DNA of 64,000 bases from a virus. Positions 9,637 to 11,145 of this stretch are shown here, in pieces; the stretch's first letter is position 1; every line of letters begins with the position of its first letter. Under the pieces are notes generated by a model, which was given only the letters and a program-made list of their open reading frames with translations, was not told the origin of the DNA and made no database searches. A program made the position numbers and the translations under genes. The stretch is from the IMG/VR virus record IMGVR_UViG_3300029319_000002, positions 1-64,000 of that record. One strand, given 5' to 3'.

Positions 9637-9894
9637 ATGGGAAGTTTTTCAGTATTATTTCCAGATTGTGACCCTTCGCAAGCAGATGACACTAGTTTAC
9701 CAACTAATGCATATTTGGTCGAATATATTCAAGGTGAAACTTCACATTACGATATCGTGATGTCCAGTAAAAAAGTAGATATATTTGACCATTACTATGA
9801 TAAGTATAGAAAAGATCTTTTGAATATCACTCAAACAGAGGGTAGGATTCGTCCTAACCTTTATGGAGAGAGCAAAAAGAAAAAGGGAAAGTGA
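9637..9894 (+). CDS. Hypothetical protein
   Basis: Start refined to ATG 9637, directly after the previous stop. Confidence 0.7.
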   Translation: MGSFSVLFPDCDPSQADDTSLPTNAYLVEYIQGETSHYDIVMSSKKVDIFDHYYDKYRKDLLNITQTEGRIRPNLYGESKKKKGK

Positions 9895-9955
9895 TTTCCC
9901 AAAAAGGGGGAAAAAAATTCCCCAAAATTTTTGCTCAAAAAGGTCGATTAAAAAT

Positions 9956-9971
9956 TGTATTATATAATACA
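9956..9971. promoter_or_regulatory. Candidate NtcA box
   Basis: Perfect 16-bp palindrome TGTATTATATAATACA = TGTA-N8-TACA; contains TATAAT at 9963-9968. Confidence 0.6.
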
Positions 9972-9978
9972 CTAATAC

Positions 9979-10007
9979 TTGACTAAATAAGACAGATGGT
10001 CTAATAT
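9979..10007 (+). promoter_or_regulatory. Sigma70-type promoter with overlapping late motif
   Basis: TTGACT-17 bp-TAATAT; CTAAATA at 9983-9989; predicted start about 10014, just before riboswitch P1. Confidence 0.6.
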
Positions 10008-10015
10008 AGACCTAT

Positions 10016-10246
10016 CGTTCATCCAATGCTATCACTCTTATTGGCATTGACCTTAGCCAACCACGATCCGTCACCCTACGGGTGGCATATGACTTGTGAA
10101 AGGTTCTTACAAAGACGATTAGAGATCCAGGCAGATCCAAACCTTGACTTTAGGTCGAAGTTGAATCTAATAAGGTATCTAAAATCAAAAGTAGAAGGTG
10201 AATGTAAAGGAGTGTATACATAGGACGCAAGTAAGTCGCGGAACGG
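10016..10246 (+). ncRNA. Glutamine-II (Downstream-peptide) riboswitch-like unit 1, with an ORF inside the P2 loop
   Basis: CGTTCATCC ... GGACGCA-AGTAAGTCGC-GGAACGG; P1 CGTTC/GAACG and the CGCA junction match the motif. Confidence 0.65.
10026..10223 (+). CDS. Small two-Cys protein nested in riboswitch unit 1
   Basis: Hydrophobic N-terminus; MTC...I...LD...KL.LI...K...EC. Confidence 0.75.
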   Translation: MLSLLLALTLANHDPSPYGWHMTCERFLQRRLEIQADPNLDFRSKLNLIRYLKSKVEGECKGVYT

Positions 10247-10248
10247 AG

Positions 10249-10461
10249 CGTTCATCCCATGTTTGAATTACTCTTATATTCAACACTTAGTTGTACTCAA
10301 GCCGATGCTATTATGTTTCGGATTACTACAAATAAGCATTTAGATGATGAACTCAAACTTGAGTTAATTGAGACCGTAAAGGACTCAGCACCAGAATGTG
10401 ATTATTACTGGGACGCAAACGACTGAAGGAACGGGGCCTAAAAATCCAACTACTTCAGGAG
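10249..10461 (+). ncRNA. Glutamine-II riboswitch-like unit 2, with a pseudoknot over the RBS of the DUF4278 gene
   Basis: CGTTCATCCC ... GGGACGCAAACGACTGAAGGAACGGGG; CTGAAG (10423-28) is complementary to CTTCAG (10453-58), which overlaps SD GGAG. Confidence 0.78.
10259..10426 (+). CDS. 55-aa two-Cys protein nested in riboswitch unit 2, paralog of 10026 (not in ORF track)
   Basis: MFELLLYSTLSCTQADAIMFRITTNKHLDDELKLELIETVKDSAPECDYYWDAND. Confidence 0.75.
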   Translation: MFELLLYSTLSCTQADAIMFRITTNKHLDDELKLELIETVKDSAPECDYYWDAND

Positions 10462-10468
10462 TAAACAA

Positions 10469-10636
10469 ATGAACACACTTACTATCATCAAAAAGCAGAT
10501 TGAAAAGCAATCTGCAATTCACGATGCACAAATTTCTCACACTGCCTATCGTGGTGTTAAGTATAATGTAAACTGTGCAGAGCAACAGGATCTTCATGGA
10601 ACCTATTGCTATCGTGGTCGCACCTATACTAAGTGA
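10469..10636 (+). CDS. DUF4278-family peptide, 55 aa (not in ORF track)
   Basis: Two YRG motifs (AYRGVKY, CYRGRTY); CAGGAG SD; directly downstream of the riboswitch. Confidence 0.85.
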   Translation: MNTLTIIKKQIEKQSAIHDAQISHTAYRGVKYNVNCAEQQDLHGTYCYRGRTYTK

Positions 10637-10641
10637 TCACA

Positions 10642-10737
10642 ATGGAAGCATTACAAATAGTCGGACTCACGTCTCTAGGTTGTGCAGCATTTATTGGATT
10701 ACTTTACGGTGAACTAATTCTCCTCAATAAAGTCTAG
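10642..10737 (+). CDS. 31-aa single-TM microprotein (not in ORF track)
   Basis: MEALQIVGLTSLGCAAFIGLLYGELILLNKV. Confidence 0.6.
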   Translation: MEALQIVGLTSLGCAAFIGLLYGELILLNKV

Positions 10738-10745
10738 GAGGACAA

Positions 10746-10904
10746 ATGCTGAAGATCAAAATTGAATATGATCTTCCAGTATATGATCCAGAAAAACACG
10801 ATCCGAATAAAACTTTTGCGTTTTTAACTTATCGTGGTGTACATTATGCTAAGTGGGTTTATTTAAAACCTCTTAGCAAGAAAAACTGGAAAATAAGTAA
10901 TTAA
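10746..10904 (+). CDS. 52-aa YRGV-motif peptide, DUF4278-like (not in ORF track)
   Basis: AGGAGG SD; FLTYRGVHYAK. Confidence 0.75.
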   Translation: MLKIKIEYDLPVYDPEKHDPNKTFAFLTYRGVHYAKWVYLKPLSKKNWKISN

Positions 10905-10940
10905 GAGGGTCTTGACGACCCTCTTTTTTATTGCTATAAT
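10903..10940 (+). terminator. Terminator with the -35 of the next promoter in its loop
   Basis: AAGAGGGTC-TTGAC-GACCCTCTT-TTTT; TTGACG(10912)-17 bp-TATAAT(10935). Confidence 0.85.
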
Positions 10941-10962
10941 ACCTTTGTAACCAGTCCCTACC

Positions 10963-11145
10963 ATGTACGAAGAACTTAATTGTTTTGAGGAAGCACTCAA
11001 GCATTTTGGCACAAGAGTTGAAGTCATTTGTGCTCTAGAGTTATCAAACCGCATTTCTTCTGAAGATGCTTATAAGATGATTAAAGATGAAATGAAAGAA
11101 GTAAAGAAATGTCGTAAGCAATTTAAAAACGAAAAAGACTGCTGA
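10963..11145 (+). CDS. Hypothetical protein
   Basis: First ORF after the promoter. Confidence 0.7.
   Translation: MYEELNCFEEALKHFGTRVEVICALELSNRISSEDAYKMIKDEMKEVKKCRKQFKNEKDC

Follow-up and report, generated by a model that had tools for sequence, protein, structure and literature searches.

The window analyzed here, a stretch of 64,000 nucleotides (nt) covering positions 1 to 64,000 of the IMG/VR virus record IMGVR_UViG_3300029319_000002, is T4-like cyanomyophage DNA. The conserved parts of the glutamine-I (glnA, RF01739) riboswitch are present twice in it, at 10016-10434. We consider it probable that the 5' end of this early cyanomyophage mRNA is one composite glutamine sensor made of two interlocked glutamine-I-type cores. 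The fold is interlocked and does not consist of aptamers placed side by side: the 5' P1 strand that comes first has as its partner the 3' P1 strand that comes last, and the two strands in between form a local hairpin. Two small genes, open reading frames (ORFs) 1 and 2, lie inside the P2 stems. The promoter at its 5' end, the riboswitch strands, the numbered ORFs and the operon terminator described below are on the plus strand.

An initial annotation of this DNA had proposed that protein-coding genes are nested in riboswitch stems and were duplicated as RNA-plus-ORF units. Every sequence feature that it listed was found in place. CGTTCATCC occurs at 10016-10024 and 10249-10257 (two matches versus 0.15 expected by chance), and GGACGCAA-N9-GGAACGG at 10223-10246 and 10411-10434 (two versus 0.00 expected). 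The region 9900-10950 is conserved in 427 phage records, with 69-76% identity to the best-matching Synechococcus and Prochlorococcus phage records; in phage Syn9 its three small genes are annotated as gp196, gp197 and gp198. Among 185,579 prokaryote genomes searched, the doublet junction was found in only six contigs of metagenome-assembled genomes, which are probably mis-binned phage. The junction is essentially confined to viral sequence.

Topology of the two cores

The outer element is a complete canonical aptamer, with ORF1 in its P2 loop and the second core in its P3 loop. The outer P1 is formed by CGUUC (10016-10020) and GAACG (10429-10433), the latter followed by the linchpin G (strand and linchpin, 10429-10434). 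After the junction A (A10021) comes P2a, whose 5' strand UCC-A-AUG (10022-10028) holds the ORF1 start codon and whose 3' strand is CAU-A-GGA (10219-10225). The outer junction CGC, which is the ligand-pocket strand, and the 5' half of the E-loop, AAGUAA, follow at 10226-10234, in agreement with the crystallised construct and the Rfam consensus. The P3 5' strand GUCG (10235-10238, plus the pair A10234:U10424) pairs with CGAC (10420-10423), which together with the 3' half of the E-loop, UGAAG, occupies 10420-10428. The inner element reads GAACG-GAG-CGUUC-A-UCCCA, ORF2, UGGGA-CGC-AAA and contains all the pocket nucleotides. Its P1' hairpin (10241-10253) is made of GAACG (10241-10245), the loop GAG with G10246 as inner linchpin, and CGUUC (10249-10253). 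The P2b 5' strand UCCCA (10255-10259) ends with the A of the ORF2 AUG, and the P2b 3' strand UGGGA lies with the inner junction CGC-AAA at 10409-10419. The inner core is a circular permutation in which P1' is a closed hairpin and P3 an open helix shared with the outer core. Covariation is observed for every helix of this architecture, including the one at the Shine-Dalgarno (SD) sequence described below. RNAfold adds to it for the P2a 5' strand and P1', the duplex energy for the P2a 3' strand, and the Rfam consensus for the P3 3' strand with its E-loop half.

For the comparative analysis, 326 loci were collected from IMG/VR and phage records, and 152 unique doublets were parsed. A first collection pattern with 14 specified bases gave mostly chance matches, with about 25 useful loci; variant loci were fetched by patterns fixing the change on one strand only. 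The bases at P1 position 5 (5'a/3'a/5'b/3'b) are C/G/C/G in 73 unique doublets, C/C/G/G in 70, U/C/G/A in 8 and U/G/C/A in 1. They are always Watson-Crick when paired as 5'a:3'b and 5'b:3'a, and are non-complementary as 5'a:3'a and 5'b:3'b in 79 of the 152. In a 32-locus alignment the nested structure is 98.8% paired, and the fifth pair is formed in 32/32 sequences in both helices (outer, CG:23 and UA:9; inner, CG:30 and GC:2). In the side-by-side structure this pair is not formed in 30/32 sequences for one helix and 31/32 for the other. The proposed self-contained RNA-plus-ORF units with a P1 each are thus contradicted: covariation upholds the long-range P2 stems and the nested P1, not a P1 within each unit. 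The 58 loci that share the window's own architecture give the same picture, with 98.3% of the nested structure paired and five pairs changing on both sides. None of 500 shuffles reached the observed paired share or covariation score and one reached five pairs changing on both sides; slid controls were 27-44% paired. In the inner P1', G:C swaps to C:G with both sides changed, and this hairpin is predicted in every RNAfold run. The linchpin pair is invariant and gives no covariation signal.

A five-base complementarity between AGUCG (10234-10238) and CGACU (10420-10424), offered only as speculation in the initial annotation, is a real and covarying contact. It corresponds to the canonical P3, with the E-loop halves at its flanks (58 loci: GC:52, AU:5, GU:1; variants AGUCG/CGACU, GAUCG/CGAUU, AGACU/AGUCU and AGUCA/UGACU). 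The E-loop halves and P3 strands are distributed over units 1 and 2, so that a complete canonical core is found in neither.

Three pairs at the start of P2a and five at the start of P2b are preserved and show covariation (third P2a pair in 58 loci, CG:49, UA:7, UG:2). With arms of 24 nt, the duplex energy with the true partner is -15.2 versus -9.9 kcal/mol with the swapped one for P2a, and -11.3 versus -9.6 kcal/mol for P2b (permutation p<0.0005 for each). RNAfold extends P2a such that the ORF1 AUG is paired to the CAU just 5' of the ORF1 stop codon. Folding of 10012-10475 gives -121.4 kcal/mol (z=-3.6) with a long P2a helix, the P1' hairpin and the SD helix; the z-scores of compact doublets, -0.4 to -1.9, are not significant. 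Thermodynamics alone does not decide between the topologies.

Identity of the riboswitch family

The glutamine-I riboswitch, or glnA RNA, was reportedly described by Ames and Breaker in 2011, and its structure by Ren et al. in 2015. A scan of all 64 kb at Rfam gathering thresholds found no riboswitch match, and the window does not reach the 35 bits required for RF01739. The absence of a match is due to the two large inserts and is not evidence against the family. ORF-free relatives score 34-50 bits with RF01739. A phage singlet reaches 50.1 bits, compact ORF-free doublets 38.4-38.6 bits as nested doublets, and the compact second unit alone 34-36 bits. Using Rfam's model, Infernal aligns the ORF-free doublet as one aptamer with an insert of 39-41 nt in P3. 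The family identity is settled because the relatives lacking ORFs match RF01739.

The window fits both the Rfam consensus, AUCGUUCA-P2-GaCGGAAGUA-P3-GAAGGAACG, and the layout of the crystallised glutamine-I construct, CGUUG-A-P2-CGG-AAGUAA-P3...P3-UGAAG-CAACG (PMC5393176). It reads CGUUC (10016-10020), A, UCC, ORF1, GGA, CGC, AAGUAA (10229-10234), GUCG (10235-10238), and further on CGAC (10420-10423), UGAAG (10424-10428) and GAACG (10429-10433). All five pairs of the CGUUC/GAACG P1 are formed in 58/58 and 32/32 sequences. The P2 stem follows directly after the junction A, where UCC/GGA and AUG/CAU close a 190-nt loop; the length of the P2 loop is unconstrained in the RF01739 family. Both halves of the E-loop, AAGUAA and UGAAG, and the P3 pairing GUCG/CGAC are present, P3 being closed over 181 nt and not by a tetraloop. 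The pocket nucleotides (CGUUCA, CGC, GGAACGG and the linchpin) are found in both cores and conserved in 147/152 loci, and both cores putatively bind glutamine.

Glutamine-II (RF01704), in which the 5' CGUUC is pseudoknotted with GGAACGG in a 3' hairpin loop without E-loop or P3, was also considered and rejected. The E-loop and P3 are present here, and the 5'b:3'b pairing is contradicted by covariation. Relatives score 26-34 bits with RF01704 (cut-off 33), always less than the glutamine-I score at the same locus.

Genes nested in the P2 stems

Both the covariation of the P2 stems and a coding signature confirm that each CGUUCAUCC...GGA stem encloses a small real gene. ORF1 (10026-10223, 65 aa, Syn9 gp196 family) lies wholly in the P2a loop and ORF2 (10259-10426, 55 aa, Syn9 gp197 family) in the P2b loop. 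The ATG of each is located 1 nt 3' of CGTTCATCC, at 10026 and 10259 respectively, as initially noted. Both ORFs are real genes under purifying selection. The ratio of nonsynonymous to synonymous polymorphism (pN/pS) of ORF1 is 0.31 in frame versus 1.0 and 1.25 in the other frames, with codon-position diversity of 0.27/0.18/0.45. For ORF2 it is 0.48 versus 0.81 and 1.62, with 0.43/0.25/0.56.

The ends of both genes are embedded in the aptamer strands, also in line with the initial annotation. The ORF1 stop codon TAG (10221-10223) overlaps the first G of GGA in the 3' P2 strand. ORF2 reads through GGGACGCAAACGAC and stops at TGA (10424-10426) in CGACUGAAG, so that the aptamer core and the P3/E-loop strand supply the codons for its C-terminal WDAND as well as its stop codon. 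In relatives the stop of ORF2-type genes is always the U(G/A)A of CGACU(G/A)AAG, and the AUG lies 5 nt 3' of CGUUCA across ORF types. Other small ORF types are found in P2b loops (L089, L101, L205 and L048 of our collection), e.g. ...VNRAKVYPD...CKDAND, with unchanged AUG offset and E-loop-strand stop.

The statement that neither ORF has an SD sequence is correct for ORF1. In this phage, however, a GGAG (10245-10248) sits 10 nt 5' of the ORF2 ATG. It may act as a weak SD, which folding of the inner core would hide; it is not kept among relatives, where the linker at the inner P1' loop varies (GAG, GGG, GAU, GAA or GGUA). This GGAG lies at the 3' end of the inner P1' hairpin and in its loop.

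ORF1 matches phrog_6471 (E=2.5e-31) and ORF2 phrog_504 (E=1.9e-26), both PHROGs of unknown function, and neither Foldseek nor Pfam searches with the two proteins gave a functional lead. AlphaFold (AF2) models, with a mean predicted local distance difference test score (pLDDT) of 81 for ORF1 and 77 for ORF2, have a common layout: a short hydrophobic N-terminal helix, a helix started by a Cys, a 5-residue loop, a second helix and a second Cys. Alignment of the two profiles with hhalign runs from Cys to Cys over 39 columns (P=6.8e-4, probability 27%), and the Foldseek neighbour lists of both proteins in BFVD overlap reciprocally, with weak E-values. The paralogy suggested in the initial annotation is therefore plausible and moderately supported, by the profile alignment, the same predicted three-helix topology and the reciprocal neighbours.

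Promoter, probable expression platform and downstream genes

A sigma-70-type early promoter, TTGACT-17-TAATAT (9979-10007), ends 8 nt 5' of CGUUCA, so the sensor should begin at the 5' end of the mRNA or no more than a few nt from it, and ORF1 would be almost leaderless. The promoter ends 7-9 nt 5' of CGUUCA in 88 of the 97 related loci with a promoter match. A GTA-N8-TAC palindrome (NtcA-box consensus) is present at 9957-9970, 8 nt 5' of the -35 hexamer. It is found in 40/147 related loci, 33 of them with identical 8-nt spacing, and its centre is at about -50, not the canonical -41.5.

At the other end of the sensor, CUGAAG (10423-10428) is complementary to CUUCAG (10453-10458), which abuts the SD AGGAG (10457-10461) of ORF3; the two elements span 10453-10461. 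RNAfold predicts this helix in ligand-free minimum free energy (MFE) folds. In 136 loci its variable position is A:U in 36/36 cases with A and otherwise G:C or G:U, never A:C. The CUGAAG:CUUCAG helix is likely the expression platform. Another complementarity, between the 5' GUUCAU of P1 (10017-10022) and the ORF3 start AUGAAC (10469-10474), is paired in the RNAfold MFE structure. It could be a second OFF-state contact or due to chance, and is absent in relatives whose downstream gene starts with AUGGC.

ORF3 (10469-10636, 55 aa, Syn9 gp198 family) matches phrog_545 (E=1.9e-31) and is a YRG-repeat, putatively DUF4278/IF17-like protein, scoring 18.9 bits with Pfam PF14105, less than the cut-off of 25.3 (E=0.002). 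IF17-like genes are controlled by validated glutamine ON-switches, and release of the SD has been proposed for gifB of Synechocystis (Klahn 2018, PMC6212724). A second YRG-repeat, DUF4278-like protein, ORF5 (10746-10904, 52 aa, phrog_6192), is below the Pfam threshold. The operon is closed by an intrinsic terminator at 10903-10933. Between the two YRG genes there is a gene for a 31-aa hydrophobic peptide (10642-10737), without PHROG or Pfam match, which is also conserved in S-TIM54 and carries the annotation CPTG_00098 in Syn2. A strong sigma-70-like promoter (TTGACG-17-TATAAT with upstream TG, 10912-10940) overlaps the terminator and precedes the next small gene at 10963.

Natural variants and possible origin

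The relatives present the aptamers and the ORFs in many combinations. Both ORFs are found at 58 unique loci and ORF2 only at 80; doublets with only ORF1 (L033, L038, L043, L080), ORF-free doublets (L085, L091, L112, L118, L161, L188), singlet aptamers (L129, L133) and a triplet (L087) also exist. At sites lacking an ORF, a short loop (UUCG, for example) closes P2. In contigs of marine RNA libraries, position 10258 is joined to 10410 through a TTCG loop. Such contigs cover 10043-10233 and 10240-10432; none covers 9900-10007 or extends past about 10909, and transcript ends cannot be deduced from them. Since the doublet occurs without ORFs and with either one alone, the ORFs are not obligatory parts of the duplicated unit. 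As every combination occurs, the doublet is the basic unit, with ORFs gained and lost in the P2 loops. We infer that an ORF-bearing singlet was duplicated in tandem and that the inner P3 and E-loop halves were then lost, which would account for both the paralogy and the strand swap.

In the triplet (L087:6496-6873, also L092) the extra first unit has the core AAGUAAGCCGACUCGGAACGG, and a local CCG-ACU-CGG hairpin replaces the usual P3 strand. A variant core, AAGUAAGCCGACUCGG, was noted alongside it. Many relatives (e.g. L001:1055-1100 and L033:615-670) carry AACGGAUCC-hairpin-GAGAAGGUUAA between sensor and SD, which resembles a third, degenerate 3' half-aptamer (ACGGA...GAAGGUUAAC). This element is absent from the window.

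Discussion

How could such a composite sensor work? By analogy with the validated gifB switch of Synechocystis, CUGAAG would pair with CUUCAG at low glutamine and mask the SD of ORF3. Binding of glutamine would lock P1, the E-loop and P3, so that CUGAAG is withdrawn and ORF3 turned on. The start codons of ORF1 and ORF2 lie in the 5' strands of P2a and P2b beside the binding pockets, with their stop codons in the opposite strands, so the ligand-bound fold should hinder initiation on the nested genes. Conversely, ribosomes on ORF1 or ORF2 would have to unfold the sensor, and the SD helix would be opened as well by a ribosome that reaches the ORF2 stop inside CUGAAG. The outcome could be reciprocal or translation-gated control. 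We infer the sign and size of every regulatory effect, including that of the switch on the nested genes, from this layout. The full proposal, a strand-swapped two-pocket sensor with the nested genes on at low and the IF17-like ORF3 on at high glutamine, with feedback by ribosomes, and with phage riboswitches under-counted, is tentative, and we regard it as possible rather than established.

Several points weigh against the interlocked sensor. Even at E<=10, an Rfam scan of 9850-10950 gave no riboswitch match. Because P1 and the pocket nucleotides are almost invariant, support for the topology comes from a single variable pair in each helix. As the sequences are related, significance is overstated by the shuffle controls, and the one-strand retrieval patterns bias the frequency of variants, although not the identity of the partner base. 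The inner core has no E-loop and is a candidate permuted aptamer only. The long-range P2 stems have 3-7 contiguous base pairs over loops of 150-200 nt, and translating ribosomes would keep them open. Finally, of AGGAG only the two leading bases are part of the SD helix.

Alternatively, the locus could contain two independent side-by-side glutamine riboswitches, each with its own P1 around its own ORF and acting pseudo-cooperatively, which is also what homology searches would yield by default. Tandem glutamine doublets are so described in the literature (PMC9481103), each half-pair resembles a complete aptamer in homology search (the compact second unit even on its own, with the score given above), and RNAfold of the compact doublet L161 yields that fold. 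We nevertheless find this very improbable. In the 79 unique loci mentioned above its fifth P1 pair would consist of C.C and G.G, or of U.C and G.A, and the pair is missing in nearly all sequences of the 32-locus alignment; no unit would own a complete canonical core, given the split E-loop halves and P3 strands, and P3 would become a pseudoknot across both P1 helices. Still less credible is that the aptamer is a relic broken by gene insertions, the motifs being kept as translation signals, RNase sites or recombination joints without any sensing. The missing Rfam match and the short long-range stems would agree with this. However, every pocket nucleotide is conserved in both cores at 147 of the 152 loci, and compensatory changes are seen in P1, P1', P2a, P2b and P3 across ORF-bearing loci.

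It could also be that the interlocked switch is real and controls ORF3, and that ORF1 and ORF2 are passengers in the P2 loops as the only insertion-tolerant sites, uncoupled to glutamine and riding on the early promoter in a compact phage operon. Whether one site holds an ORF is indeed independent of the other site, with a tetraloop cleanly taking its place where it is missing, P2 loop length is free in the family, and P2b houses several unrelated-looking small ORF types. This deserves some weight, but we think it unlikely. The AUG is at a fixed 5-nt offset after CGUUCA, inside the P2 strand, in different ORF families, and the stop codons are found within the opposite strand or that of P3 and the E-loop. 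No SD precedes ORF1, and the GGAG of ORF2 is not conserved. The P2 arms covary well past the minimal stem, start codon included. Moreover, translation physically excludes folding of the aptamer, so that some interplay is unavoidable.

Compared with known systems, the interlocked sensor shares with glutamine-I riboswitches P1, the junction A, P2, the CGC/CGG pocket strand, the AAGUAA/UGAAG E-loop, P3 and the linchpin pair, as well as the proposed ON mechanism by SD release; the gene downstream is DUF4278/IF17-like at a score below the Pfam cut-off. It differs from them in that its P2 holds a 197-nt insert which is a translated gene, as judged from its coding signature, that its P3 holds a second, permuted core with another gene, and that its score is below every Rfam threshold. 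A tandem glycine riboswitch likewise has two homologous aptamers with conserved inter-aptamer contacts and a single expression platform, but there the aptamers stand side by side, each with its own P1, without nested genes. In the Mg2+ leader of Salmonella mgtA, the 17-codon regulatory peptide mgtL is encoded within the alternative stem-loops of the leader. There too, translation of an ORF in a ligand-sensing leader competes with alternative RNA structures; unlike mgtL, the ORFs nested here are conserved families of 55-65 aa, encoded within the stems of the aptamer proper. Group I introns whose peripheral loops contain ORFs, such as td of phage T4 with I-TevI, combine a ribozyme and a mobile endonuclease gene. 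They resemble the present locus in that long-range helices of a structured phage RNA enclose a protein gene in a terminal loop, but the RNA described here is a putative metabolite sensor with small non-mobile genes.

A survey of tandem glutamine riboswitches listed 157 doublets and 4 triplets and treated them as separate pseudo-cooperative switches (Sherlock et al. 2022, PMC9481103); ORFs inside stems are not mentioned there. The present locus resembles these tandems, where two or three sets of glutamine-aptamer motifs follow one another ahead of a single gene, and our ORF-free phage relatives would count among them. In independent tandems each aptamer would fold by itself and have its own expression platform, whereas the cores of the window swap P1 strands, share P3 and have a single platform, the SD helix. 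In the crystal dimer of glutamine-II (PMC6698751; PMC7357161), CGUUC of one core pairs with GGAACGG of the other with both pockets intact, as here. That exchange is intermolecular and regarded as an artefact (PMC6698751), whereas the exchange in the window is intramolecular and fixed by covariation. We found no description of strand-swapped nesting or of genes inside the stems in the searchable literature, whose coverage does not include the original 2011 glnA paper.

Glutamine riboswitches in cyanophages are already known from the literature. A 2017 survey by the Breaker laboratory counted only two glutamine aptamers in genomes of cyanophages and concluded that riboswitches are rarely used by phages (PMC5473149). 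The gene-interrupted form is common in cyanophages and is missed by standard riboswitch searches. With the locus in 427 phage records and no Rfam match in the window, the use of riboswitches by phages is probably under-counted; if the two-pocket reading is true, it is substantially so, because the inserts defeat covariance-model searches. The nesting also revises how tandem glutamine riboswitches are to be drawn, and the nested cores are a natural equivalent of the domain swap that was taken for a crystal artefact in glutamine-II. Riboswitch aptamers are regarded as compact domains that do not encode protein. In this locus the ligand-binding fold itself contains conserved genes, so that folding, ligand binding and translation must be mutually dependent, and this provides a natural system for studying the competition between ribosomes and metabolite sensing on one RNA. 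For the phage, early gene expression may thus be linked to the nitrogen status of the host through an IF17-like protein.

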